Positions 4,102-18,256 of a stretch of 64,000 nucleotides of DNA are shown one piece after another (positions within the stretch are counted from its first letter, which is position 1; the number at the start of each line of letters is the position of its first letter). The notes beneath the pieces are model-generated. The model did not search any database. It was not told where the DNA came from and worked only from the letters and a program-made list of their open reading frames with translations. The position numbers and the translations under genes are program-made. The DNA lies in the IMG/VR virus record IMGVR_UViG_3300021960_000038; one strand, given 5' to 3'. This stretch comes from an uncultured virus (IMG/VR IMGVR_UViG_3300021960_000038). Taxonomy: Duplodnaviria > Heunggongvirae > Uroviricota > Caudoviricetes.

Positions 4102-4335
4102 CTAGAAAGTTCCACCGTCGAGAACTGTAGTTGTTACCCACTTATCTGTGGCAGCATCATAAGACAGAAGTCCGTCATCGGTTTCTGTCGCATTCACGTC
4201 TGCTAGGTCATTTAAATCTGCAGTAGAAACTGCAGAAGAAGATGAACCTATTGCCACTTGCTTAACTTTTGTTCCACCAGAAGATGTAACTCTTGCTTTA
4301 AAGGTGGACCCTGTATTTATTGTTCTTATTGCCAT
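4102..4335 (-). CDS. Small fibre-associated protein
   Basis: LNDLADV...LLSYDAATDKW fibre repeat; ends LDGGTF; TAATG-coupled to upstream gene. Confidence 0.7.
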   Translation of the reverse strand: MAIRTINTGSTFKARVTSSGGTKVKQVAIGSSSSAVSTADLNDLADVNATETDDGLLSYDAATDKWVTTTVLDGGTF

Positions 4336-4667
4336 TATCTTGTTACTCCTGGAGTGACGATTACTTGTCCTTCTAAAACACGAGTTTTGTCACCACCCGA
4401 TGAAATAATCACACAATCGTAGACATATCTTCCGAAGTCTAATGCTGAGGTTTGTGTGTCAGTAAGTTGTAATGTAATTTGACCAGCAACTCCTGAAACA
4501 GAAGTTGAAAACACTGCTGATGTTGAAGTGCTGGTGTATGCTTTTCTTATATGGGCAGTTGCTGTATATCCAGAAAGATCCATAGCAGTTCCATCACTGT
4601 TTGTCATGTCTACAGTGAATGAAAAGTCTGATCCTTGATCAATGTATAGATTACTTACTGATGCCAT
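4335..4667 (-). CDS. Virion structural protein, BppU-like Ig adaptor
   Basis: NLYIDQGSDF...DLSGYTATAHIRK...GRYVYD...RVLEG.V.VTPGVT pattern; follows a late promoter. Confidence 0.7.
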   Translation of the reverse strand: MASVSNLYIDQGSDFSFTVDMTNSDGTAMDLSGYTATAHIRKAYTSTSTSAVFSTSVSGVAGQITLQLTDTQTSALDFGRYVYDCVIISSGGDKTRVLEGQVIVTPGVTR

Positions 4668-4693: not shown

Positions 4694-5491
4694 TTAGAGA
4701 TTGTATTGCTGTGCTCCAAACAATAATATAGTGGGTATTTTCGCAGTAATTCGACACTCTTTTGTAATATTGAATTCTTGAACGGAGTCATATTCAGTAT
4801 TATTTATTTCAATTTTTCCTTCCAGCAACAATAAAACTGATTTTACACCCTCTGGTTGTATGCGTACGAACTCACCCTCTTGTAAGTCATGTACATCATA
4901 CTTCCAAAAGTCGTATGGAGTGGGTAATGTTTGTGGATTGTAGTTGTTAGAGATACAATTTACAGTAGCACCATCTGTAAGTGCTGTGGAAACTGTGTTA
5001 AATTTTTGATCAGGATCCTCAAATTTAGAATTGTTGACATTGATCTTAGGAATTCTATCGTACTTTCCAATGTTGTGTGTACCTCTACGATCTATATGTC
5101 CAGGATTTTCCTTATCTCTCTCATAGGGTCCAGGATTTCCGTTCTCATCGATGGACACAATCTTAATTTCACCTTGTGTATAGATATGAATCCTTTTGTT
5201 GTGATGAAGTTCTCCATTGTCAAGTATCTTAAGAGATTTCCAAAAGACTGGATCATGATCTTCTAGAGTTTTAAAAATTTCTTCTTTGGTAATGCTGTCT
5301 TTATCCATGTACTCAGCATATGTTTGCATTAGGTTATCCCAAATTTCACTAGGATCTACAGGATAAGTTGCCTCCAATGCATAATCTGTGGGTGCTGAGA
5401 ATCGAGTTTGATATCCTGCATCCATAATAGTGCGTTCGACTACGAATGTTCCGCATTTGTATGTTTCTGATCTTCTTTCTGGTTGTTTCAT
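4694..5491 (-). CDS. Hypothetical protein, C-terminal cupin-like beta region (paralog 3)
   Basis: C-terminal YDVHDLQEGEFVRI...VLLLLEGKIEIN pattern shared with 5488-6066 and 6063-6716; ATGA overlap. Confidence 0.6.
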   Translation of the reverse strand: MKQPERRSETYKCGTFVVERTIMDAGYQTRFSAPTDYALEATYPVDPSEIWDNLMQTYAEYMDKDSITKEEIFKTLEDHDPVFWKSLKILDNGELHHNKRIHIYTQGEIKIVSIDENGNPGPYERDKENPGHIDRRGTHNIGKYDRIPKINVNNSKFEDPDQKFNTVSTALTDGATVNCISNNYNPQTLPTPYDFWKYDVHDLQEGEFVRIQPEGVKSVLLLLEGKIEINNTEYDSVQEFNITKECRITAKIPTILLFGAQQYNL

Positions 5492-6066
5492 ACTATCTCT
5501 GTAATCGTTGCTACCATAACTTCATCCTTTGCTCTTATGGTAACATCTTTACCTGAAGTTGCTTTGAGGTATTCAAATCCTTTAACATGTTTGTCATTAA
5601 TTTGAGCACGACCTTTTGCTATAAAGATATGTATATTTCCACCTAAGTTGCCGATGGTTATGTATTCATCTTTTTGTAGAGTGACATAATCGTACACAAG
5701 TTCTTTTTCTTGCATCTTATGTTTAGGATGAATGCAGTAGAGGTGTCCTCCGTCTATAAAGTGCATCCGAACTTCAGATGCATCAGTGTGGTTAGGATAC
5801 CATGGTCTTCCTGGCATAGGATTTGGTTTGAGACCTGTATTAGCATAATGTATGTTACACCAACCACGAGGAGCAACACCAAAACTATGAGAGTCTTTTC
5901 CAAAAAGGACATCATGTTTCTCAGTAAAAATATGTATTGCGGAACTTGGTCTTTCACCTTCTCTACCCTCCTCAAATCTGTGAGTGTTCACTTGGAAGTA
6001 TTCATCTTCCTTTGCATGATTGTCAAAGACTAAGACATCTTCGTAATTGAACCAATTCCATTTCAT
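5488..6066 (-). CDS. Hypothetical protein, cupin-like (paralog 2)
   Basis: GWCNIHY...YDYVTLQKDEYITI...HIFIAKGRAQIN; ATGA overlap. Confidence 0.6.
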   Translation of the reverse strand: MKWNWFNYEDVLVFDNHAKEDEYFQVNTHRFEEGREGERPSSAIHIFTEKHDVLFGKDSHSFGVAPRGWCNIHYANTGLKPNPMPGRPWYPNHTDASEVRMHFIDGGHLYCIHPKHKMQEKELVYDYVTLQKDEYITIGNLGGNIHIFIAKGRAQINDKHVKGFEYLKATSGKDVTIRAKDEVMVATITEIV

Positions 6067-6716
6067 AGTTCTGTAATGATGACAGCCATGTTATCTGATG
6101 ATCTACCTTGTAAATCATAATCACTCTTACCTGATATTGTTACAAAGTTTATAGAATCTAACACATCCGTATCTTTTTTCTTACCACGATTACAAACTTT
6201 AAACTTACCATGTAAAAGAAACACCCATACTCGTTTACCATGATGTTTCATGCGTACATACTCACCCTTTTCAAGTTTTACAAAATCCCAGACGCACTCT
6301 ACATCTTTCATAGTCTTTGGATTTGCTAATACGCATAATGACATAGCATCATCTTGGAACTGCCATTTAATTTTAGTTCCTGTATACCCTGTCCAACTTG
6401 GTGTGCCTTTAAATGGATTAGGATCGTTTTGCCTAAAGAAGTTTATATTGTTCCATCCGTGACCATGTACTCTTCTTGTTACACCTGATCCGTCGGCAGC
6501 AGGTGCATCCATTTCATTAATAATAGTTCCACCAATCACGCATCTAAAGTTGCTGTGTCTTTGTTCTTTGTCTCTCCCCTTTTCAGGTAAGTGAGTGTTG
6601 GGTGTGTAGACGTCTCCTTTGTTTCCTTCTATAGAAAACATCCAGAAATCTTTGGCATCCCAGAACCTATTCTTTATTCCCATACTTCTCCAAATCTTGT
6701 AATGCTTCTTTAGCAC
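6063..6716 (-). CDS. Hypothetical protein, cupin-like (paralog 1); start may be internal MGIK
   Basis: GWNNINF...WDFVKLEKGEYVRM...WVFLLHGKFKV. Confidence 0.6.
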   Translation of the reverse strand: MLKKHYKIWRSMGIKNRFWDAKDFWMFSIEGNKGDVYTPNTHLPEKGRDKEQRHSNFRCVIGGTIINEMDAPAADGSGVTRRVHGHGWNNINFFRQNDPNPFKGTPSWTGYTGTKIKWQFQDDAMSLCVLANPKTMKDVECVWDFVKLEKGEYVRMKHHGKRVWVFLLHGKFKVCNRGKKKDTDVLDSINFVTISGKSDYDLQGRSSDNMAVIITEL

Positions 6717-7245
6717 TTTGTACTTCTTGATAATTTGCTGAATGTTGTATAGTCACTTCAGACATCTCAATCCATGGTGGTAAATCTATAAGATACTCTA
6801 TAAACTGAACAACCCAATCATGATCCAATGAATCTAATTCATGTTCTAACAATCCTAAGTTAAGTGTACACATTCTACACTGCTTGTCAGAATTGAAAGT
6901 TAGATTGTTTGCTAAATGGTTAAGTGATGCTTTCTGCGCAGCATACATATAACCTTTACTTATATTAGCATACTTCGCACGTGATGAAAAGTTTATGATG
7001 AGTTTGTTAGGATCATGCTTCCAATGTTCAAATATACCCATCAGCAATTCAGTTTGTTTGAAGCGAAGATGTGCTAGATTAATAAAGACATCGCAATCTT
7101 TAATCTTATCTACTACTGCGTCGGCATACTCTATTGAAAAATCTGCACTTGAAAATTGTACAATCTCATAATGAGAATAGTTTCTTAAGAAGTCTGCGAT
7201 CTTACCACCGAGACCACTCTTACCTGTTATTGCTACTTTTATCAT
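6667..7245 (-). CDS. Short-chain dehydrogenase/reductase (SDR)
   Basis: VAITGKSGLG Rossmann loop, DVFINLA, INFSS, YAAQK catalytic YxxxK. Confidence 0.85.
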   Translation of the reverse strand: MIKVAITGKSGLGGKIADFLRNYSHYEIVQFSSADFSIEYADAVVDKIKDCDVFINLAHLRFKQTELLMGIFEHWKHDPNKLIINFSSRAKYANISKGYMYAAQKASLNHLANNLTFNSDKQCRMCTLNLGLLEHELDSLDHDWVVQFIEYLIDLPPWIEMSEVTIQHSANYQEVQSAKEALQDLEKYGNKE

Positions 7246-8149
7246 AATAATCCTTAATCAAATCAAACGATGGTTTACCAAACAATGAACCATCTACACT
7301 ACACTTGTTACAAGGTGAGCATGATCTATCACCTTTGATTAACCTTTTTCTTATTTTGTTCATAGGTTTACTGAACCAAACTTCATGTAAAGATTGCTGT
7401 AGTAGATTACCCACTACATGTTCTCTACCCCAATCATTAGAGCAGAACAATACATCACCATTCCAGTCTACAAACATTTTATAGAAAGGATAATGACATG
7501 GTTTACCTTCTAGAGATTTAACATCGGATTCTTCAATACCAACCCAATCTATTACACCACTTCTATTGTTGAGTATCAACCCATGCTTTTCAAACTCACC
7601 CCAATGCATACGATATTTATATTTTGTTACAGGTATTTCTGCCCAGAGTATTAATTCATCAAAATGTTTCATCTGTTCTGGACCATCATATAGATTGATG
7701 TAAATCATGTCTAATCCACTATTATGAATAAGATCTACAAGATAACGATGATCTAACTTATCACCATTGGTGTTACACTCTAATGTAGCATAAGGAAGTT
7801 CTGTTCTGAAGATTTTTACGATATCTCTAAAATCTGGATTGAGTAAGTTCTCACCAAATCCACTAAATGAAACTTTACCATTGAAAGATTCTTCTGCCAA
7901 TTCTTCTGCTATTCTTTGAGCACCTTTGATGGTCAAATGTAGATTTCGATTAGGGAATACTTCTGGATCATGTCTTGGACAAAACACGCATGTGCGATTA
8001 CACAACTCTGTTGTGTTTATCTCAACTGTAAGTATTGAAGATAGTGGTTTGTCTAGTTGGTTATGGTTTCTTTCGAAGTGCTTTCGCTCTTGTTCTCTGC
8101 GATGTTCTAGGAAACCATATTGATCAACTGCTGGTATCCTTTCTGTCAT
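7220..8149 (-). CDS. Radical SAM protein with SPASM/Twitch domain
   Basis: CNRTCVFC (CxxxCxxC), SGFGENLL, NTNG; C-terminal PCHYPF...FCSND...GNL...CSPCNKC; start taken at MTERIP. Confidence 0.92.
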   Translation of the reverse strand: MTERIPAVDQYGFLEHRREQERKHFERNHNQLDKPLSSILTVEINTTELCNRTCVFCPRHDPEVFPNRNLHLTIKGAQRIAEELAEESFNGKVSFSGFGENLLNPDFRDIVKIFRTELPYATLECNTNGDKLDHRYLVDLIHNSGLDMIYINLYDGPEQMKHFDELILWAEIPVTKYKYRMHWGEFEKHGLILNNRSGVIDWVGIEESDVKSLEGKPCHYPFYKMFVDWNGDVLFCSNDWGREHVVGNLLQQSLHEVWFSKPMNKIRKRLIKGDRSCSPCNKCSVDGSLFGKPSFDLIKDYYDKSSNNR

Positions 8150-8309
8150 TATAAAATCCTCTTTCAATTATCGCAGTTTGTACTCTAGGAGCAATAGGTT
8201 CAAAGAGTGCCATGGCACCCCTTAACTCATTTACATCATCAGTTTTGGCATCTGCCTTTAGCACATCGATGTAGGTTTGTGTATTAGTTAGTGATGTCGA
8301 TTTTTCCAT
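8124..8309 (-). CDS. Hypothetical protein, 61 aa
   Basis: TAATG-coupled to the 472-aa gene; overlaps the rSAM start. Confidence 0.55.
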   Translation of the reverse strand: MEKSTSLTNTQTYIDVLKADAKTDDVNELRGAMALFEPIAPRVQTAIIERGFYNDRKDTSS

Positions 8310-9727
8310 TATAAATTAAATTGTGGGGTTGGTACAGATTGGTGTATCTTACTAATTTGATTAGCAGGTGCAGTAGGATCGTTTACATACACCTCTTGTG
8401 CTTTTCTAATTGTACCACCTTGATTTATATATACACCTTTTGCTTTGGCAATTGGTCCGATAGGTCTAGTCGCTGGGTATGGCTGTTGTGCAGGATTTTG
8501 ATAAGTCTGCTGATATGTGTATGGTTGCTGATAAGGTTGCTGTATCGGTCTAGTAGCACCGAATGGTTGTTGATATCCATAAGGTTGCTGGAAAGCATAA
8601 TTCTGCTGATATCCATAAGGTTGTTGGAAAGGATATGGTGTAGTGCCTGTTGCTGGACGTGTTCCAGTTGCAGGTCTTAATGCAGGTGTTTGTCCAGTTG
8701 CTGGTCTCGGACCAGTCGCAGGTCTTACTGCTGGATAAGGTTGCTGAAATGAATAAGGTTGTTGAAATCCATAAGGTTGCTGGAATGAATATGGAGATTG
8801 AAAAGTTGTATTAATCGTTGCTGCCTGTACATTTATTGAATTATTTGCTTCATAAACAACTGGAATTGGTTCTTCTTCCCCAAAGTCGAATTCTTCTTCT
8901 TCTAATGTCCAATTTACTTGGAAACCAAATGGACCTGCTGACCCAAAACTAAATGGATATGGTGTATCTGCTGGACTAGATGCTTGATGCAATAGAACAT
9001 TTGCAACAGTAGGTGTTTGAGCAGTCAATTCAAACTCTCCTGGCTGATTAGGAGCAGGATAAAAACCTACAAAGTTGTATGCAAATGTATCACCTTTGTT
9101 TATTTGTGCTGAAACAGGCGAATTAGATTGACCAAATGGTGATGATATTAAAATATCAGAATAACTCGGTTGTGCTGTTAATGTAACAGGATATGTTGAC
9201 ACCAATGATGGATGCGTTCTTTGATAAGTTTGCTGATATGGTTGCTGATACTGATAAGGTATTTGTGTAGCACCTTTGGGTTGCTGATATGGAACAGTTC
9301 CAATGGCAGGTCTTACAGCAGTACGAGTAGCAGGTTGCTGTGCTGGAGTTGGTTGTTGTCCTGTAGCAGGTCTAACCCCTGTAGTGGGTCTTGTTCCACT
9401 GGCAGGTCTGGTTGCTGTATAAGGTTGTTGAAATCCATAAGGTTGCTGAAACGGATATGGAGTTTGATAGGGTTGTTGAAATCCATATGGTTGCTGGAAT
9501 GGATAAGGTGTTGTCCCAACAGCAGGTCTTGGTCCACTTGCAGGTCTTTGTGCTTGAACAGGCACAGTTCCAGTAGCAGGTCTTGTAGCAGTATAAGGTT
9601 GTTGTGCTGGTCTTAGAGCAGGTCTAGTTCCAGATGCAGGTCTAGTCGCAGGTTGTTGTATAGGTCTGAATGCAGTGTATGGCTGCTGGAAGTTACTCCC
9701 GATATTTATGTAGATATCATCAGACAT
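8309..9727 (-). CDS. QQPY/RPA repeat protein with self-complementary arms; putative fibre-tip protein
   Basis: Arms aa13-127 and aa309-423 are built from QQPY and RPA(T/S)G units around a non-repetitive domain; C-terminal GVYINQGGTIRKAQEVYVN; AAGGA RBS. Confidence 0.85.
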   Translation of the reverse strand: MSDDIYINIGSNFQQPYTAFRPIQQPATRPASGTRPALRPAQQPYTATRPATGTVPVQAQRPASGPRPAVGTTPYPFQQPYGFQQPYQTPYPFQQPYGFQQPYTATRPASGTRPTTGVRPATGQQPTPAQQPATRTAVRPAIGTVPYQQPKGATQIPYQYQQPYQQTYQRTHPSLVSTYPVTLTAQPSYSDILISSPFGQSNSPVSAQINKGDTFAYNFVGFYPAPNQPGEFELTAQTPTVANVLLHQASSPADTPYPFSFGSAGPFGFQVNWTLEEEEFDFGEEEPIPVVYEANNSINVQAATINTTFQSPYSFQQPYGFQQPYSFQQPYPAVRPATGPRPATGQTPALRPATGTRPATGTTPYPFQQPYGYQQNYAFQQPYGYQQPFGATRPIQQPYQQPYTYQQTYQNPAQQPYPATRPIGPIAKAKGVYINQGGTIRKAQEVYVNDPTAPANQISKIHQSVPTPQFNL

Positions 9728-9737
9728 GATCTATCCT

Positions 9738-11378
9738 TTAGACCACGAACCAAAGATGTCCTGTGGAAGTTCCTGTTGAGTCTGTTGGTGCACTACTTGT
9801 AATTTCATAATCTAAAGATATACTTAAATCGTATGGGTCAGATGAAGATCCTGGAGTTGTATCTGTTAAGTTAACATCAATACCAGCACCCTCAACATAT
9901 TTTAAATACTTACCACCATCCATAGTAACTTGAGTTCCGTCACCATCGATAGCATACCATTCGTAAGTATTATTTAGTGTTAAAGTTCCAGCAGAATCAT
10001 CATAAGTCTTTGATATGTTAGTTCCTGCTGTAATTAAGTTAGCAACTCTGTCATCTACTCTTTCATCAGTATAGAACTTGTTAGTACCTTCTGAAAAATC
10101 ATCAGTGTCTAGTGTTCTAGTTCCACCGAGTGAAACAGATGTACCATTAATAGTAATAGCAGAATTTGCTAATGCTGAGTTTGGTAAGTTTGTTACACTT
10201 AGATCAATCGCACCATCACCTGCATCATCATAGGTAGCAGTGATGTTAGTATGCGAACCATTGGTCACTAATTGGGCACCAACGATATCTTGTATGCTTT
10301 CTGTATCTGTAGTTGCTGAGTTTGTGATTGTCAATGAACCAGCACCATCATCGTAAGATAAACTGATGCCTGTTCCTGCTGTAAGTAAAGTGTCAACTCT
10401 ATCATCTACTCTTTCGTCTGTGTAGAATTTGTTAGTGCCTTCTGCTAGATCGTCAGTATCTAAAACTACAGCACCTGTAGAACCATTCACACTTGTAACA
10501 GGAGCACTTGCTGCTGTAAAACTAATTACACCTGATGAAGAATCGTATGAGATATCACCAGATGCTGAAATTGCATTTCTTGCTAATGTGTTACTAAAAT
10601 ATTGATTGGTAGATCCTTCTGCTAAATCATCTGTGTCAAGATTAGATAAACTAGATACTGTTCCTGTTACATCACCTGTGATATCACCAACGAAAGCAGT
10701 TGAAGTGATACTTGAGAACCCTGTACCAACTCCATTCGTAATGGTTGCTGTTCCATCTGTAATGCTAGGTGATTCAAAAGTATGACCAGTGTCAATCTTC
10801 ATGTTACCATCAACAAAAGTATTACCTTCTAATTGAACTGTGTAACCTGATTCTAAAGTAGTGGTTGGTGAGGATCCATCACCATTAATAATTACACCAG
10901 ATGCATTATTGTTATAGATAGCACCAAGAGCAGTAAGTTCCCAATCATCTGCTGCACCTTCTGTACCTTGCACATCTAAATATGATCCTGTAAAAGTTGA
11001 TAAACGAATAATATCATTTAAACTAGCAGCAGAGGTAAGAGTAATGGTTGTGAACAATCCACCACTGGGTCCACCCACAGCATAGTCAACACCACTTCGA
11101 AGTAAAGCACCATTTTGGAATACTTGAACTCGGTTCTGTCTAAAACTTAATGTATTACTAAAGTTGTCTGTACCAGAGAATGTAGTTTGTCCAGAACTTG
11201 CTGTGAATTCAAATTCTTGGTAGTAGAAGTACAAATCTTGTATGCTGTTTACAGCATCTACAATAGTAGTTTGGTTGATAGTTCTTAAACCAGAAACATC
11301 ACCTACATCGGTTGCAAGTTCGTTATATCTACTTCTCCAAGTTTCAAAAGTATCTGTGGTATTAACTGTCTTTGCCAT
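9738..11378 (-). CDS. Tail-fibre-like protein
   Basis: TDTFETWR N-terminal anchor motif; FTASSGQTTF/VFQNG domain; DTDDLAEG.N.FYTDERVDDRV repeats; ends SSAPT...GHLWFVV. Confidence 0.8.
   Translation of the reverse strand: MAKTVNTTDTFETWRSRYNELATDVGDVSGLRTINQTTIVDAVNSIQDLYFYYQEFEFTASSGQTTFSGTDNFSNTLSFRQNRVQVFQNGALLRSGVDYAVGGPSGGLFTTITLTSAASLNDIIRLSTFTGSYLDVQGTEGAADDWELTALGAIYNNNASGVIINGDGSSPTTTLESGYTVQLEGNTFVDGNMKIDTGHTFESPSITDGTATITNGVGTGFSSITSTAFVGDITGDVTGTVSSLSNLDTDDLAEGSTNQYFSNTLARNAISASGDISYDSSSGVISFTAASAPVTSVNGSTGAVVLDTDDLAEGTNKFYTDERVDDRVDTLLTAGTGISLSYDDGAGSLTITNSATTDTESIQDIVGAQLVTNGSHTNITATYDDAGDGAIDLSVTNLPNSALANSAITINGTSVSLGGTRTLDTDDFSEGTNKFYTDERVDDRVANLITAGTNISKTYDDSAGTLTLNNTYEWYAIDGDGTQVTMDGGKYLKYVEGAGIDVNLTDTTPGSSSDPYDLSISLDYEITSSAPTDSTGTSTGHLWFVV
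10051..10445. repeat. Intragenic direct repeat encoding EGTNKFYTDERVDDRV, two copies (about 10051-10093 and 10403-10445)
   Basis: Near-identical ~43-nt segments of the form tcatctactctttcntcngtntagaanttgttagtnccttctg. Confidence 0.75.
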
Positions 11379-11583
11379 TGTTTAAAGTCCCAATAATTGT
11401 TGTTAACATAGATTTAATTTGAGTCACCTCATCTTTGAGAATAGAAATCTCAGTTTGAGTCGTTCTCCATACTCTCTGTCTATTTTTAGCAGCAGTGTAG
11501 GAGTCCATATCAGTATTTATTATAGCACCTGATCTTTCATCTCTTAAGAGATTCTTATGTCCTTCTACTTTTACTTTTGCCAT
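11362..11583 (-). CDS. Conserved small protein of T4-like marine phages
   Basis: KVEGHKNLLRDERSGAIINTD followed by a coiled coil; lies next to the VrlC-like gene. Confidence 0.75.
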   Translation of the reverse strand: MAKVKVEGHKNLLRDERSGAIINTDMDSYTAAKNRQRVWRTTQTEISILKDEVTQIKSMLTTIIGTLNNGKDS

Positions 11584-11584
11584 T

Positions 11585-14500
11585 TTATGTTGCTAATGCG
11601 ATTGCTCTAAAGTTTTGAACAATCGGTATCTCAGTTGTTTTTGTTCCTTGCCCTACAATCTTAATAGCAAAAGCAGTAAACTCTGCTAAATTGTTGACTG
11701 TATATTCGTACTCTTTAAAGTTTCTAGAATCTGCTTCTACAGTAATATCTGGTGATCCATCTGTATTGAAGTAAGTCCAACCAATTTCATCAAAAGGTAA
11801 AGACTCATCGTTTCTTAAAACTTTAAACATGAGTTTTACATCGTTAGTGCTATTTCTAAAGATGTCTGCCATTACTTTAATTGCTGTTGCTGGAGTCTTA
11901 AGGTTTACTCTCTTAGTAATGTAAACCATAGCATTGTTATCCCCTTCTGCCTCTGTGCTATCAAAGTATGTACTGTAAGATCCTACATCGGATGAAGAAT
12001 CTACATTGTTAATTCTGTTGTGTATTGCTAAACAACCAATTGTGCTTACATCTATAATCGGTGACAAGTTAGGGTTCAGAGATTGTAAAGATAACTGTAA
12101 TGTAAATGACTTAGCATTAGACATCTCATTGTTTTCATTAATTCCTGAAGCAACCATTTGCCCATCAGAGAAGAACACATTATCGTTGAGTGCGATGTAA
12201 TTAGAAACACTACCTCTAGTGTATTGTGTTCCATTAATTACACCTTCTGGTGATTTAGCAGGTGTTGTTCTCACATTACATAACATGTATGTATCTTTAA
12301 ATGTTAAAGAAGGTATCATCGTATGTAATGTATCGAAGTAATAGTCTTGTGTAGCAAGTACACTAGCACCACCACCTCTAGAAGTTTCTATCGCACCACC
12401 AACTAGATCATAAGCAGATAAAGAAGGTGTTACTGTATAAGAGTCAATCTCTATATCAGTTAAAGCAGTAAATGTAGTATTCAATGCAGCGATAGGGAAT
12501 CCACCTAGTGTATCACCAACTGTATCTATCGCAAAGGTTGTGCTATTTGTAGCAGAACCAAAGTTTGTTACAGTTAGAGTATCGGCAGCATCATAACCTG
12601 ATCCTGGATTTTTAATTTCCCAAGAACTAATAGCACTTGATGCGACAACCACTTTGACTGTTGCACCTGTTCCAGATCCAGAAGTCGTAGTTGCGATGTC
12701 ATCATAAGTACCATCAGCAGGTAATGAACCAGAACCCACTGCAGATGGATTAGTGATGGATAATACTGAGTCAGTTCTATCCCCTGTTATACCCGACAAT
12801 GTAACATTACCACTAGCATCATACATACCATGCGAATAATGTGATACTTTAACTTTACTGTTGCCAGAGATAAATGATATCGGAGATGCTCCTAATCTAG
12901 TAGAATCTAAAGCATCGTTGTTAAATCTTACTGTACCTTTCTGAGATGTATCAAACTTACATTGATTCAACTTAAACTTAAGATCTTCTAATTGCTCAGC
13001 AGACCATGTTGATGCGTTTTGTGATTTGAATAATACACCAGCATAAGGTTGATCAGTAATCACTTCTTGTGTAATTAAATCAGTACCACCCATCTCAGAT
13101 ACAAATACTTCGTATTCGTTTGAGTTAGAAAGTACGACCACACAATACTCTGTATTGTTCTCAACATAGACTGGAGATTCAAATGTAAATGTAGTTGCTG
13201 TAGCACCATTTGCTGAAGTATTTACAGCAGATGGTTTCTTAGATACTGATGAGAATGGTAATACTATTTGTCCAGGATAACCATTCACCATGTTTCTAAT
13301 TTCTACATTCACAGGTAGAGAATCGTCTTTAGTTTTAAAGTAGACATCTACAGAAGATAAGAACATACCACCATCTGCTACAACCATAAATGATTGTGCA
13401 AGTGGATCTCTCCATCCACCATCCATCATTTGAATTCTCAAGTTTCCAGGAATTCTTGGATTACCAGGATTTTGTATTTCTGGAAATTGTCTTATAGGTA
13501 ATATAGGTTCAACTCTAGCAGGCACTGGAGGTGCTGGTGGAGTTGGTATTAATGCAGGTGCTATCACTGGTGATGGTATTGTCACTGTTGGAATTGGTGT
13601 AGGTATGGTTGGTGCTGTAAGATCAAATTGTACAGCATTCAGTTCTTCACCTCTTCTAGTGATAGTTCTATTACCACTTGTTTGTTCTTGTATAACTCTA
13701 CCATTTCTAGTAGCGACAACTGTTGTTTGATTAGATTGTAAAAGACCTCTAGCACTATAAGTTGCTTGTGCTTTAGAGTCTGCATCTATTTGTCCATTAG
13801 GATCAGAGATAACTGTTAATACTCTCTCCCCTGTAGGGAATCTTTGAGCACTTGAATTAGGTATAGAGAATGTAAATGATATATCACCAGATCTATCAGT
13901 TTTTACTCCAGCACCTAAAGATGCACTTCCTGATTGTGAGTATGTAGCACTTGATGGTGTACAGAACGAATCTACATCTATACCATCAAAGTAAACATAA
14001 TGGAAGGTGTTTGGTTTTAATCCATCACCTGTTACAGTTATATCTCTGCTTCGAATAAATGGTATTATGCTAATACCAACTGTTCTTGTGTTTCTATCTT
14101 CAGTAAATTCTTCGACTACTGAAGTTCTAATTCCTGATCTTGTTTGTGTTTCAGGTGTTTCTGTGATTGTTCTAGTAGTTCTAGATCCTGGAACCCAAGT
14201 ACCACCTTGTCCTGGAGTTCCTTCCCATGCACCTGCACGATTAGAAACTGTTTCAGTTCCTGTATTATTAGGTTGCCCAACCCATGATGTCTGCCAGTTA
14301 TTCCATACTGTACCAAGTGAGTTTCCTACACCTGCTAATACAGTATCAAAGTTTCCTTCTCTGTTAACTCTAATCTCTGGTAAAGTTTGAGTATCATTCC
14401 ATACATCAGTTCCAGGAGATAAGTTTAATGTTCCTGTAAATGCGAAAACATTATAAGGATTAACATTAATTGCTTTAGATGCTTTTGATTGATTAACAAA

Positions 14501-17500
14501 AGGCACTTCAGAGAATGGTAGATGAATAAGATCACCAGTCTTAGTATAGTTTGCTGAAGTAGTTGTATCTAGACTAATGTCAAAGAAGTTTGTTACAGAC
14601 ATAGGTCTAAGATGACCATTCTCTGCATCAACTGCTACTTTATAGTCGGGATGGTTAACATCACCAATACCATGTCCTCTAAAGTTATCTACTAAGAAAC
14701 CTGACTTGAATCTATCAAATCCATCACCATCAAGTATCTGCATAGATTGAGTATCTTTTTCAAGTAGAGATAGAGTCGTTACTCTTTCTAGATTCTTAAC
14801 TCTATCTGCTAATCTACCGATATCTTTCATAGTATATCTTCTATGATCTTTTGATCGGATAACTACATCATCTAATGTTTCTGTATAAGGTTTGAGTGAT
14901 AACTCAAACAACTCGATAGCATTATCTACAGGAGAAGGTCTGGTTGGTGATAAAGAAGGTGTTCCATGAACAACCTGTAATAGACCTGTCTGATGTAAGA
15001 ATATCTTATCTATTCTTCCAACATAAAAAGTGATATCACCAACAACATTTGATCCAGGAACTAGCATATCAACGATAGATGCTCCCGATGCTGTTACACC
15101 TGATGTGGATGCTTCGAATGATTTGTTTTCGTAATAGAATGGAGCACGAACAGCACCACTTGTAGAGTTTGATAAATCTACAGGGGAACTAGGATCAGGT
15201 GTAGTGGCACTAAATGTTGTTGTACCTAATATCTGACCAAGAGAAGGTCTAAAGTCAACTGAATCTCTTAATTCATATTCTCCATCTGGTTCTAATGACT
15301 CAGGATCTACTCTGTTAGATATGTACTGAGGAATCTCATCATAATCCACACCAGAGTAAGAATTGACATCGTAGAAATCACCAGAACCTGATGATGTGAA
15401 ATAATCAAACACCACCATGATAGGTGAAACAGGAGCAGGTGCTCCAGGTTTTCTAACGATTTTTGCTAAGTCATAGAAACCATCTCTTTGACCATCGTCA
15501 AAGAAGTAGTTGTTTGTTATAACTTTTGAACCTGCATCTATGGAACCCAATGTTCCTGCTGCTGTAGATGTTGAACCGATAATAGATTCTCCATCACTAA
15601 ATGCAGTTGTCGAAGTAAGGTAGAAATAGGAAGTGTTTCCTGTACCACCATAGTTAATCATCACACCTCTGGCACCTGAAGTTTGACCAACAATAACTTC
15701 TCCTTGGTCAAATCCAGTGGCAGTGGTTTGTGTAATTGTAAAGGAAGGTGCTGTAGCATCATTACCATCTACACCCTCATAGATTGCTCTTAGTTTGAAA
15801 GCATCAGATACACCCAATGTGATTTCTTTATCATCATAGGCAGTACCATAGAAACCACCAGCACTTCTGGCACTTCCTACTTTCAATACTCTAGCAGATT
15901 TTAAGTTTTTATCTCTGTTAACAGGTGAGTTGATATCAACTGTGTATGTAACTTTAAGTATAGCACCATCATCTGCGGCATCAAAACCACTAATGGTCAA
16001 TGTTTGCTGAGAACCTGAAGTAGTAATCGATGTTGTGATATTATTGGTATTGTCATGAATATCAATGATATCACCATTTAATAAGTTTCCACCTGATTGT
16101 TCTTCAACTACAGCAACAATAAAGTTATCTGCTGTAATGCTGTCAAAAGTTTCACCTGTTTGTGTTGTGATTGCTATTTGTTGAGATGTTACTGTATCAA
16201 CAACCTGTCTTCTTACAGATACTTGGTCAGGAGTATGACTTGATACATAATCTCTTGCCCATGCTGCAATCGCAACTGTTTGTTCTTGATTGTAAATTTT
16301 AGTTCTTCTTCTTGTGATGTTACCAGTCTGAGTGCTACCTGCATTTGCTGTAAGTGTTAAAGAAGTGTCACTTGCTATAGAAGAAACAATTCTTTCATTA
16401 CCTGCGGAGTCAACTAATATATCACCTTCTTTTAATTCAGAAGAGAACAATGTTCCGAATCCTGTTACAGCAGTTGAACCACTTGTTAATGATACTGTAC
16501 CGACAAGTACATAATCATTATCAGTAACTACATCTGCAGTAAAGGTTTCTCTTGAAGTGTTTTTAGGAACTTGAGATACACCTCTAACTCTATCTATGTT
16601 ATAATTTCTTGTTGCTGTATTTTGTCCTGCTGTAATTGAACCTGATCCTGAACCATAAGATGTTACACTATCAGAGTCATCCCAGTTTCCTACTACATCA
16701 TGAATGTATAGATTGCTGGATGTATCGTGTGCTACGATACCAGACTTTGTTCCGTCTGCATTGCGTACTTGGTCACCTGCTGTGAATGTTCCACTCTTAG
16801 CAGAATATGAAATCTTTGTAAACATCTTAACATCAAATAGATACAAATTAAAGTTATCTGTTTGATCGTAGATACCATAACTTCCTGATGTGGAAGATGT
16901 ACCACTTAAATGATCAAAGTTTCTTACACGAGCATAACCAATGTGATTTGAAGTTGGTGCAGTTCCTGGAGTAGCAACTGCCACATCCCATAGTTTTACA
17001 AAGTTGTATGGTGCTTGTGTATCATCACCTGACTCATTACCGAACTCTGGTTCACTATGTACATCTGTAATCTTAAGATAGTTTCCTATTCTAACAGGTG
17101 TATTTGCTGCTGTTAAAGATTGAGTTGTGCGTGCCTTTGATACAGACACTGGAGTGGTTGCTGTTTTCTCAATCTCATAACCTCTCACATATGCTTTTCC
17201 AGGAGATACTTGTACTACAAACTTGGTAGAATCTCCACCATTTGCATTTGAGTAGTATCCTCTGTTTGTACCATCATTAAGATGCTCTCTTAATGAAGTT
17301 GTAAATTGTTGAACCACATAGTCACCAGACTCATCATAAGTTCTGCGTGCTAATGTGTTTTCAATTTCACTGTAGTTTGTATTACTGACTTTGTTTTCAA
17401 TAATACCATTGTTAACTCTCAACAATTCAATAAAGTTAACATCAACAACTGTATCTAATGCTTTCTTTGCAAAAGTAAAATTGACTTTTAATCTATCTGC

Positions 17501-18256
17501 ACCTGGAGCATTCTCATTAGAACTTCCTTGTGCGTTATCAAGTAATGAAGAATCGTTAGCACTTGAGACTAATGATTCTGTTACATCTAAACCAACTCTA
17601 TAAGAAGGTCTGGGTGAATACTTCTCTAGAATGACTGTTTGTGCGTCAACCTTAACGAAGAATCCACGAACATAAACAATACCCTCAGATATTGCTGCTG
17701 CAGAACCTCTTCCTGTTGGAACTTTATCTTCAGACTCTACTTGAAATTGATTGTTGTTAGAAGCAGAAGTAATTGAACCATCAGATCCTACTGCTACTTC
17801 ACTCAACACTTCTAATGCATCGAAGACTCTAGAGTTATCTGCATCTGTACCTGCTGCAAGGTACTTAACAAAGAGAGTCAGTGAGTCGTCTGTTGTTTCT
17901 GCTGTAGAGTTAACAACTTTTGCGACGACTCCTGTAGTTCCACCTTGTAAATACTTATCGTGGAAACTTTCTCTATAGGTTTCAACATCAGCAGTACCTG
18001 CTGACTCTGGATTTGTATTTTTGACTTTGACATAATGGTACTCGAAGTCTGCATCCGATTGTGCTCCAAGAACTATAGACCCTTCTTCAAATATATGATC
18101 ACCAAATCTTTCGATCTGGTTCTGTAATATTGATTGTGCCTGAGTTAATTCCCTTGCTTGTATCGGTCTACCTGCTCTGAACAATACACGATGAAACTTT
18201 TTACTTTCGTTAAAGTCATCGTAATATGGCGATACATTTAGATCAGTCTTCTCCAT
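11585..18256 (-). CDS. Large virion structural protein, VrlC/DUF4815-like
   Basis: PYYDDF...VLFRAGRPIQARELTQAQSILQNQIERFG; LARRTYDESGDY; RFKSGFLVDNF; NVNPYNV; DPLAQSF; LFKSQNASTW. Confidence 0.9.
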   Translation of the reverse strand: MEKTDLNVSPYYDDFNESKKFHRVLFRAGRPIQARELTQAQSILQNQIERFGDHIFEEGSIVLGAQSDADFEYHYVKVKNTNPESAGTADVETYRESFHDKYLQGGTTGVVAKVVNSTAETTDDSLTLFVKYLAAGTDADNSRVFDALEVLSEVAVGSDGSITSASNNNQFQVESEDKVPTGRGSAAAISEGIVYVRGFFVKVDAQTVILEKYSPRPSYRVGLDVTESLVSSANDSSLLDNAQGSSNENAPGADRLKVNFTFAKKALDTVVDVNFIELLRVNNGIIENKVSNTNYSEIENTLARRTYDESGDYVVQQFTTSLREHLNDGTNRGYYSNANGGDSTKFVVQVSPGKAYVRGYEIEKTATTPVSVSKARTTQSLTAANTPVRIGNYLKITDVHSEPEFGNESGDDTQAPYNFVKLWDVAVATPGTAPTSNHIGYARVRNFDHLSGTSSTSGSYGIYDQTDNFNLYLFDVKMFTKISYSAKSGTFTAGDQVRNADGTKSGIVAHDTSSNLYIHDVVGNWDDSDSVTSYGSGSGSITAGQNTATRNYNIDRVRGVSQVPKNTSRETFTADVVTDNDYVLVGTVSLTSGSTAVTGFGTLFSSELKEGDILVDSAGNERIVSSIASDTSLTLTANAGSTQTGNITRRRTKIYNQEQTVAIAAWARDYVSSHTPDQVSVRRQVVDTVTSQQIAITTQTGETFDSITADNFIVAVVEEQSGGNLLNGDIIDIHDNTNNITTSITTSGSQQTLTISGFDAADDGAILKVTYTVDINSPVNRDKNLKSARVLKVGSARSAGGFYGTAYDDKEITLGVSDAFKLRAIYEGVDGNDATAPSFTITQTTATGFDQGEVIVGQTSGARGVMINYGGTGNTSYFYLTSTTAFSDGESIIGSTSTAAGTLGSIDAGSKVITNNYFFDDGQRDGFYDLAKIVRKPGAPAPVSPIMVVFDYFTSSGSGDFYDVNSYSGVDYDEIPQYISNRVDPESLEPDGEYELRDSVDFRPSLGQILGTTTFSATTPDPSSPVDLSNSTSGAVRAPFYYENKSFEASTSGVTASGASIVDMLVPGSNVVGDITFYVGRIDKIFLHQTGLLQVVHGTPSLSPTRPSPVDNAIELFELSLKPYTETLDDVVIRSKDHRRYTMKDIGRLADRVKNLERVTTLSLLEKDTQSMQILDGDGFDRFKSGFLVDNFRGHGIGDVNHPDYKVAVDAENGHLRPMSVTNFFDISLDTTTSANYTKTGDLIHLPFSEVPFVNQSKASKAINVNPYNVFAFTGTLNLSPGTDVWNDTQTLPEIRVNREGNFDTVLAGVGNSLGTVWNNWQTSWVGQPNNTGTETVSNRAGAWEGTPGQGGTWVPGSRTTRTITETPETQTRSGIRTSVVEEFTEDRNTRTVGISIIPFIRSRDITVTGDGLKPNTFHYVYFDGIDVDSFCTPSSATYSQSGSASLGAGVKTDRSGDISFTFSIPNSSAQRFPTGERVLTVISDPNGQIDADSKAQATYSARGLLQSNQTTVVATRNGRVIQEQTSGNRTITRRGEELNAVQFDLTAPTIPTPIPTVTIPSPVIAPALIPTPPAPPVPARVEPILPIRQFPEIQNPGNPRIPGNLRIQMMDGGWRDPLAQSFMVVADGGMFLSSVDVYFKTKDDSLPVNVEIRNMVNGYPGQIVLPFSSVSKKPSAVNTSANGATATTFTFESPVYVENNTEYCVVVLSNSNEYEVFVSEMGGTDLITQEVITDQPYAGVLFKSQNASTWSAEQLEDLKFKLNQCKFDTSQKGTVRFNNDALDSTRLGASPISFISGNSKVKVSHYSHGMYDASGNVTLSGITGDRTDSVLSITNPSAVGSGSLPADGTYDDIATTTSGSGTGATVKVVVASSAISSWEIKNPGSGYDAADTLTVTNFGSATNSTTFAIDTVGDTLGGFPIAALNTTFTALTDIEIDSYTVTPSLSAYDLVGGAIETSRGGGASVLATQDYYFDTLHTMIPSLTFKDTYMLCNVRTTPAKSPEGVINGTQYTRGSVSNYIALNDNVFFSDGQMVASGINENNEMSNAKSFTLQLSLQSLNPNLSPIIDVSTIGCLAIHNRINNVDSSSDVGSYSTYFDSTEAEGDNNAMVYITKRVNLKTPATAIKVMADIFRNSTNDVKLMFKVLRNDESLPFDEIGWTYFNTDGSPDITVEADSRNFKEYEYTVNNLAEFTAFAIKIVGQGTKTTEIPIVQNFRAIALAT

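Follow-up and report, generated by a model that had tools for sequence, protein, structure and literature searches.

Can the two repetitive arms of a single phage protein recognise each other residue by residue, in one antiparallel register, as the two sides of a nucleic-acid stem do? This question is raised by a gene within a 64,000-nucleotide (nt) stretch of DNA from an uncultured virus of the Caudoviricetes (IMG/VR record IMGVR_UViG_3300021960_000038), which is referred to as the window in this study. The gene encodes P0001, a 472-residue protein with two long repeat arms, and an initial annotation had proposed that one arm pairs with the other read backwards, so that residues i and j facing each other satisfy i+j=436. 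A Pfam scan of P0001 found no family, and its single weak PHROG match, to a family of unknown function, lies at residues 427-451 in the C-terminal domain. The proposed antiparallel pairing in one register passed the sequence tests applied to it (shuffles, homologs, arm lengths and split forms of the gene), so that the arms almost certainly do pair, and P0001 is probably a fibre of a T4-like marine myovirus, the stalk of which would consist of its own two repeat arms assembled as a long two-stranded antiparallel ribbon.

The N-arm (residues 13-127, nt 9347-9691) and the C-arm (residues 309-423, nt 8459-8803) were placed by the initial annotation in agreement with the translation, and a direct count reproduced its description of their pairing exactly. 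At register 436 the 58 odd-position pairs comprise 16 Arg:Gln, 31 Tyr/Phe opposite Gly/Ala, two Thr:Thr (T73:T363 and T89:T347) and nine others; each Arg of both arms (16/16) is opposite a Gln, and even positions hold all the prolines (24/24 in the N-arm and 23/23 in the C-arm, 47/47 together). When all antiparallel registers of the whole protein were scored, 436 reached 50 and the next ones, 430 and 442, reached 33 and 32, while the best parallel offset between the arms (262) gave 39. As the initial annotation had recommended, registers were also compared with unit-shuffled arms: the units beginning with xP were permuted within each arm and the best register in either direction was taken, in 1000 trials. 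Register 436 again won, as none of the shuffles (0/1000) reached 47; they averaged 17.2 in antiparallel registers and peaked at 27 in either direction. This null is generous to the finding because it breaks up blocks of like units. A pair-score matrix built from other family members only, with P0001 excluded, assigned 48.5 bits to register 436 and 17.1 to the next one, and a matrix built from split-gene pairs alone (described below) gave 32.6 vs 19.2. We also considered a DNA inverted repeat as the cause of the mirror and rejected it, since none was found between the two arm-coding regions, in which there are direct repeats only, spaced mostly by multiples of 18 nt. The mirror thus resides in the protein and is not a nucleic-acid palindrome.

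Relatives of P0001 were collected by a word-indexed search (25 relatives) and an exhaustive HMMER search (30 relatives), and all of them are metagenomic. With the low-complexity filter on, no match was found among 50,697 phage records by tblastn of the whole of P0001 (E limit 1e-3), by tblastn of its last 78 residues (E limit 1) or by megablast of window positions 7000-12000, and the ESM Atlas gave no usable neighbour. Family members share an N-terminus, MADEIYINxGSxFQQPYQGQ, and a C-terminus, TTRPIGPxAKVKG...VYVN...EKIHQSVPxAQF, and between these lie fast-evolving repeats of unlike units, such as RSPFTYDH, AQEPNIRN, GRYPAAAQ and YPYIANAQQ. Across 17 aligned sequences, M1, D3, I5, Y6, I7 and N8 are invariant at the N-terminus and A427, K428, K430, N435, K442, Y447, K460, H462, Q463, V465 and P466 in the C-terminal domain; the middle region, which is less conserved than any other part, has few conserved columns in the same alignment, and its pLDDT (predicted local distance difference test score) in an AlphaFold2 model is 28-35. 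Also invariant are Q15, inside the conserved FQQPY of the N-arm, and R421, inside the conserved TRPI of the C-arm, which are opposite each other at register 436 and can thus serve as anchors.

The register predicted for any relative, k0, is the sum from the residues homologous to Q15 and R421, and it was compared with about 200 other registers. By aromatic:small count it came out on top for 39 of the 49 unique, full-length fused homologs, and for 29 of the 49 by anticorrelation of side-chain volumes, a score that presupposes no code. The clearest homolog is P0011: its whole register contains 51 aromatic:small pairs, and side-chain volumes across the first 110 rungs correlate at -0.68. A matrix trained on seven split pairs only selected k0 in 15 of 20 fused representatives, typically with 90-170 vs 30-50 bits. 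Smith-Waterman alignment by raw volume scores retrieved the anchored path for 8 of 21 proteins and gave noisy results for the others; it has been superseded by the family-derived matrix.

When viral contigs were scanned with the family alignment, 63 loci emerged, 27 with a fused gene and 34 with two adjacent genes (20 unique pairs). In the split forms the first gene, g1, encodes the conserved N-terminus, the N-arm and a variable globular domain, which stands at the position equivalent to residues 172-308 of P0001, and the second, g2, encodes the C-arm together with the conserved C-terminal domain. Their spacing ranges from a 1-nt overlap to a 13-nt gap in 18 unique pairs; only in loci L002 and L003 is an open reading frame (ORF) of 83 residues and unknown family (7116-7367 in L002) found between them, with g1 and g2 about 255 nt apart. 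Between the two proteins, the anchored antiparallel register ranked top by aromatic:small pairs in 18 of the 20 unique pairs, out of 325-647 registers each. In those pairs 35-65 rungs are aromatic:small and only 0-2 are aromatic:aromatic clashes, vs a mean of 3.7-5.2 clashes over all registers, and the volume correlation at the anchored register reaches up to -0.75. Locus L020, when anchored at Q15, has its best register by volume correlation at k0=241, and the sole real exception is L037, in which a one-residue offset occurs near the base and the register recovers further out.

The first residue of g2 falls opposite the point in g1 where the repeats end and the globular domain starts. The change-point in g1 composition and the residue predicted to face Met1 of g2 correlate with r=0.996 and differ by -5.2 +/- 4.7 residues, over C-arm lengths of 168, 183, 184, 217, 226, 254, 268 and 324 residues. 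On a low-resolution tree of the conserved termini (76 columns), the split/fused label needs five changes, at least three of which are forced by well-supported branches; therefore, the chain has been joined or severed at the tip several times in evolution. A complex prediction for g1 residues 1-190 with g2 of L002 scored 0.00 in both runs, which were made without controls, and weighs neither way. As a separate observation, g1 of L020 (993-2750) carries at its C-terminus (residues 439-586) a complete Hint/intein-like domain (Pfam PF05203, E 3.6e-9), which starts with CFPAGT and ends with ...VVHN, followed by one Lys and the stop codon, without a proper C-extein. This domain might cleave itself, or might activate the C-terminus of the tip domain beside the start of g2.

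As shared ancestry could make base-proximal rungs alike, cognate and non-cognate arms of 17 lineage representatives were compared over rungs more than 40 residues from the anchor. Aromatic:small pairs made up 19.3% of cognate and 9.2% of non-cognate rungs, and the volume correlation was -0.45 for cognate and -0.06 for non-cognate arms. The cognate arm was best in 14 of 17 rows, and good non-cognate scores came from close relatives. Judged from these sequences, the match between the arms is lineage-specific, which is the mark of co-evolution rather than of inheritance. In 31 pairs of close relatives of equal arm length, one-sided changes at aromatic:small rungs never produced aromatic:aromatic or small:small (0/110), and one rung was directly swapped from A:F to F:A.

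The code itself was read from 2434 rungs in 13 representatives, as enrichment over shifted registers of the same parity. Prolines keep to one residue phase (623/633) and make up 26% of it; in this phase P:Q (29%), P:R (14%) and N:T (12%) show 3-5.7 fold enrichment. The second phase favours A:Y (20%), A:F, G:Y, Q:T, Q:S and Q:R by 2.5-4.9 fold and almost lacks Y:Y (0.2% vs 5.4%), F:Y, Q:Y, A:A and A:G. Across the family, the rule is large:small and medium:medium on one face and Pro:Gln/Arg on the other, so that the Arg:Gln rule of the initial annotation holds in P0001 as a local dialect. Since partner preferences occur in both phases, which contact through one face would not produce, the arms would be lateral neighbours in one sheet. 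Merkel and Regan reportedly described an "aromatic rescue of glycine" in beta-sheets. Sequence comparison, then, establishes the pairing register, its conservation, the equal lengths of the arms and pairing in trans in the split relatives.

Structure prediction adds a little to this picture. Given a 17-row alignment, AlphaFold2 modelled P0001 with a mean pLDDT of 38.5, a strand at residues 3-9 (block pLDDT 61) and strands at residues 429-463 (block pLDDT 63-80). For P0011 it predicted two 19-residue strands, 27-45 and 378-396, with stretches of pLDDT at least 50 at residues 26-40 and 383-396, and the ends of both the strands and the confident stretches mirror each other at k0=423 or within one residue of it. 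Judged by its strand ends, this model gives weak support for an in-register beta hairpin beside the base. The volume-score alignment path of P0011 runs almost to the chain midpoint (i=210; k0/2 about 211), and that of P0032 likewise comes near the midpoint, so a separate tip domain may not be universal; the family-matrix segment of P0011 stops earlier, at residue 163. VIA-align of the P0001 model against 48,161 PDB representatives found no match with Z of at least 2.

Most likely, the N-terminal strand and the 50-residue C-terminal domain form a base, bringing the termini together, from which the chain would run out as the N-arm (residues 13-127), carry the variable middle region at its far end and return as the C-arm (residues 309-423). 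The initial annotation had likewise put a domain of residues 172-308 at the tip. The middle would indeed lie at the far end, but the unpaired part is residues 128-308 rather than 172-308, because repeats 128-171 lack a partner in register 436; no second stem was detected for them with the family-derived matrix. Paired in the one register i+j=436, the two antiparallel arms would run alongside each other, most likely forming a two-stranded beta-ribbon of about 115 rungs and roughly 38 nm. One phase of this ribbon would carry every Pro, each facing Gln or Arg, at non-hydrogen-bonded rungs, where Pro can be tolerated because it costs no strand-to-strand hydrogen bond. The other phase would follow a size rule, with aromatic residues opposite Gly/Ala and medium residues opposite medium ones (R:Q, Q:T, Q:S, T:T). 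There are two unit types, and their order would be aperiodic and mirrored between the arms, which may be why only one register fits in spite of the repetitiveness. We infer the beta conformation from the strict two-residue phase of Pro, the preferences in both phases and the low-confidence hairpin of P0011; the ribbon may be monomeric or trimeric, and the protein would serve as an attachment or receptor-binding fibre with a variable tip.

Several observations weigh against this ribbon. In 10 of the 49 fused homologs k0 does not rank first by aromatic:small count, and because the homologs have a common ancestry their ranks cannot be treated as independent trials. Compared with its near-twin P0002, P0006 is missing 36 residues of the C-arm, without a matching loss in the N-arm, and keeps the old register only in the distal part of the arms; the deletion could mean either that the stalk truly bulges there or that a repeat collapsed during metagenome assembly. 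The homolog comparison called for by the initial annotation therefore gave equal arm lengths and one compensatory swap on one side, and this uncompensated deletion on the other. Bulges of one or two residues are needed in L037 and in several fused members. The RRRP-type proteins P0008, P0015, P0031 and P0048 (684-807 residues, with 14- to 16-residue RRRP...YQYHNRV units and about 300 residues of central domain) give no anchored signal by either score, and no pairing code was resolved for this lineage with either one; by eye, its aromatic half-units stand opposite aliphatic half-units. The lineage of P0042 has Pro every seven residues in both arms, which misfits a simple two-residue beta phase, and requires a one-residue bulge. 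Its residues 113-155 and 347-389 each hold about seven PVAAVQQ-like units, at mirrored positions opposite each other in the anchored register; the module is likewise present in loci L010, L011, L014 and L019 and may be another kind of paired segment within the stalk. AlphaFold2 placed no strands between residues 10 and 428 of P0001, so the monomer prediction suggested by the initial annotation failed for the arms of this protein and gave in-register strands in P0011, where the hairpin is of low confidence (block pLDDT 33-61). In addition, we know of no solved precedent for a free two-stranded ribbon of more than 100 rungs.

The antiparallel register might instead be realised between chains, in a domain-swapped dimer or in a trimer that pairs the N-arm of one subunit with the C-arm of the next, much like the six-stranded T4 gp37 needle; most phage fibres are trimers. 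Sequence complementarity cannot separate pairing in cis from pairing in trans, trans pairing plainly works in the split forms, and one face of the ribbon is about 30% aromatic and should prefer burial. A precedent is found in the gp37 needle, in which Gly921 in a beta-strand packs against Phe970 of another subunit, where a larger residue would clash (PMC6957217). However, the path of P0011 near the chain midpoint is most simply read as a hairpin, and its AlphaFold2 monomer pairs base-proximal strands within one chain; interchain pairing is therefore considered unlikely, though it deserves to be kept in mind. The mirrored register might also be kept by interlocking polyproline-II-like or mixed helices, as in streptococcal antigen I/II, the chain of which folds back into a stalk longer than 50 nm, interlocked by Tyr residues seated in pockets (PMC7732690). 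The abundance of Pro in one phase (26%), the strandless arms of the P0001 model and the mirrored modules of the P0042 lineage with their 7-residue Pro spacing would suit such an association. Polyproline-II or collagen-like packing, however, predicts a three-residue period, whereas 47/47 prolines of the arms and 623/633 of the family keep a two-residue phase, and they keep it though unit lengths vary (2, 4, 6, 10 and 12 residues in P0001; 14-16 in the RRRP lineage). Together with the partner preferences in both phases, as for lateral neighbours in one sheet, and the fact that the sole secondary structure predicted in any arm is beta (P0011), this makes a non-beta stalk quite improbable.

Two more specific folds were rejected on similar grounds. 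A collagen-like or polyproline-II triple helix needs a three-residue period (Gly-X-Y or PxxP), at odds with the unit lengths of P0001. A hexapeptide left-handed beta-helix, with a constant 6-residue unit and 18 residues per coil, has an inward aliphatic position that is absent here, and the varying units of P0001, the 14-16-residue units of the RRRP type and the 7-residue Pro spacing of P0042 also misfit it. It could be argued, finally, that the arms are a disordered low-complexity linker and that the mirror is a by-product of repeat periodicity and block layout, without physical pairing. The low pLDDT throughout P0001 and its Gln/Pro/Tyr-rich composition would agree with this, arms of 6-residue units always give a constant pairing in some register, and the block orders ABA and BAB are each palindromic. 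Yet periodicity alone would equalise registers 430, 442 and 436, instead of leaving the first two at 33 and 32 against 50, and the parallel alignment is poorer (39). Disorder also fails to explain the equal arm lengths across split genes, the lineage-specific complementarity, the near-absence of Y:Y, F:Y, A:A and A:G rungs or why the code of split proteins carries over to fused ones. On these sequence comparisons the disordered linker appears very improbable and is strongly disfavoured.

The initial annotation held that no described fibre is built in this way, which is too strong, since the T4 gp37 needle and the antigen I/II stalks also run out and back. In gp37, the collar domain D10 comprises residues 811-881 and 1010-1026 and the elongated D11 needle residues 882-1009, with beta-strands along the fibre, the receptor-binding tip in mid-sequence and seven iron ions bound by histidines (PMC6957217). 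P0001 resembles gp37 in lying in a tail-fibre module of a T4-like phage and in its out-and-back chain, which in P0001 is indicated by sequence covariation and not by structure. Unlike gp37 with its iron-binding histidines, the P0001 arms contain no His, and while the gp37 needle has about 130 residues in all, arms in the P0001 family have 113-324 residues each, are phased by proline and follow a code rung by rung. Nor is there a sequence relation detectable by a profile search, as a profile of 17 family members gave 0 matches against all PDB chain sequences (E up to 1). gp37 is a trimer, and the P0001 ribbon may be either monomeric or trimeric. To our knowledge, split two-gene forms are not known for the gp37 needle.

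In antigen I/II (SpaP/P1, BspA), a single chain folds back, its two repeat regions intertwine and hold a variable domain more than 50 nm out, Tyr of one arm sits in pockets of the proline-rich arm, and N- and C-terminal domains lock the base (PMC7732690). P0001 is similar in that repeat arms flank a variable middle and in that the termini would meet at the base. The antigen I/II arms are unlike each other, however, one being an Ala-rich heptad alpha-helix and the other a PxxP polyproline-II helix, whereas those of P0001 are of the same kind and swap roles block by block; and antigen I/II is a cell-wall-anchored bacterial protein, whereas P0001 is a phage tail-module protein without an LPXTG motif. 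Equal-length antiparallel arms of one chain, with a head at the tip, a register fixed by a residue code and lengths that change together, are also found in the coiled coils of SMC proteins, Rad50 and the dynein stalk. These are alpha-helical with a heptad code, in contrast to the two-residue period of the P0001 arms with Pro in phase, and therefore the P0001 stalk cannot be a coiled coil. None of gp37, antigen I/II and the coiled-coil stalks is known to have proline-phased beta repeats, a rung code over hundreds of residues or split forms, and a full-text literature search found no description of this family, its repeat code or its split forms. It is quite possible, and we put this forward tentatively, that the family founds a class of fibrous proteins of its own, in which two beta-strands zip into a ribbon addressed by their sequence, with a residue-level code of size and polarity and one register, extending from 113 to more than 320 rungs (about 40-110 nm), built equally well as a hairpin or from two polypeptides and evolving its length and code by paired changes.

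The coordinates of the gene, its parts and its neighbours are collected in Table 1.

Table 1. Features of the P0001 locus, in window coordinates
Feature	Coordinates	Strand	Basis or remark
P0001 gene, putative fold-back fibre protein, 472 aa	8309..9727	minus	ORF list and translation; stop codon 8309-8311
N-terminal strand (MSDDIYINIGSN), aa 1-12, part of the putative base	9692..9727	minus	Conservation and AlphaFold2
N-arm, aa 13-127	9347..9691	minus	Conserved FQQPY, then RPA(T/S)G-type and FQQPYG-type units
Unpartnered N-side Q/P/Y repeats, aa 128-171	9215..9346	minus	Alignment path stops at residue 127
Non-repeat middle region, presumed tip domain, aa 172-308	8804..9214	minus	Poorly conserved among homologs
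C-arm, aa 309-423	8459..8803	minus	Complementary to the N-arm read backwards; ends in conserved TRPI
C-terminal domain of the putative base (GPIAKAKGVYIN...KIHQSVP..QF), aa 424-472	8312..8458	minus	Conservation and AlphaFold2
Upstream neighbour, fibre-like structural protein, 546 aa, ends ...HLWFVV	9738..11378	minus	phrog_697 'structural protein'
2223-aa protein between the fibre-like gene and gp8	11585-18256	minus	phrog_358, function unknown
110-aa gene like L-shaped tail fibre assembly proteins	4335..4667	minus	64.5% identical to the L002 gene

The P0001 gene sits in a T4-like structural module. A homolog of the fibre-like gene upstream of it is present in all of the related loci (63/63) and always precedes the P0001-family gene. 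Further upstream are a gp8 homolog (Pfam PF09215, phrog_438), a baseplate wedge-like protein of 1252 residues and a wedge protein resembling gp6 (phrog_219); the baseplate genes of the cluster are gp6/gp7/gp8-like. The gp8 homolog shares no more than about 38% identity with its counterparts in Pelagibacter phage HTVC008M and in marine cyanomyoviruses. The L002 counterpart of the 110-aa assembly-like gene matches phrog_3304, 'L-shaped tail fibre protein assembly' (E 3.6e-24). This gene is found in 61 of the 63 loci and lies directly downstream of the fibre gene or genes in the four loci in which ORFs were read. In the window it is separated from the P0001 gene by a block at 4694-8309, which comprises an ORF of 61 residues, a radical SAM/SPASM enzyme (7220-8167) and another four ORFs. 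A homolog of the radical SAM gene occurs in only one of the 63 loci, L001, which is the same phage as the window, and the block looks like an insertion unrelated to the fibre. With its gene in a tail/baseplate module beside fibre and fibre-assembly genes, P0001 has the usual setting of a tail fibre. Judged from sequence and gene order, it would be an attachment or receptor-binding fibre, with its conserved base docked on the virion and its variable tip held out. Two side observations concern this region: the 2223-aa protein has a short tail-fibre-like stretch matching phrog_1980, and long ORFs lie on the opposite strand over the two arm-coding regions, at window positions 8321-8680 (+) and 9212-9616 (+), which stop-free repeats could yield without a gene being there.

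Long repeat fibres face the problem of finding one register among many, and the P0001 family seems to solve it by means of a readable pairing code. The family also exposes a blind spot, as AlphaFold2 returned almost nothing for the arms, whereas simple covariation in an end-anchored frame was decisive. If this zipper class is real, it would be a protein counterpart of the nucleic-acid stem and a template for programmable heterodimeric rods; likewise, if the ribbon is real, it would offer protein design natural, orthogonal strand pairs of tunable length, with the split forms as ready-made heterodimers. The folds described for phage fibres include triple beta-helices, beta-spirals and coiled coils, and a real ribbon would be a new way to build one. 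It would also explain how the fibres of the abundant, uncultured myoviruses of the sea can rapidly alter both length and tip.

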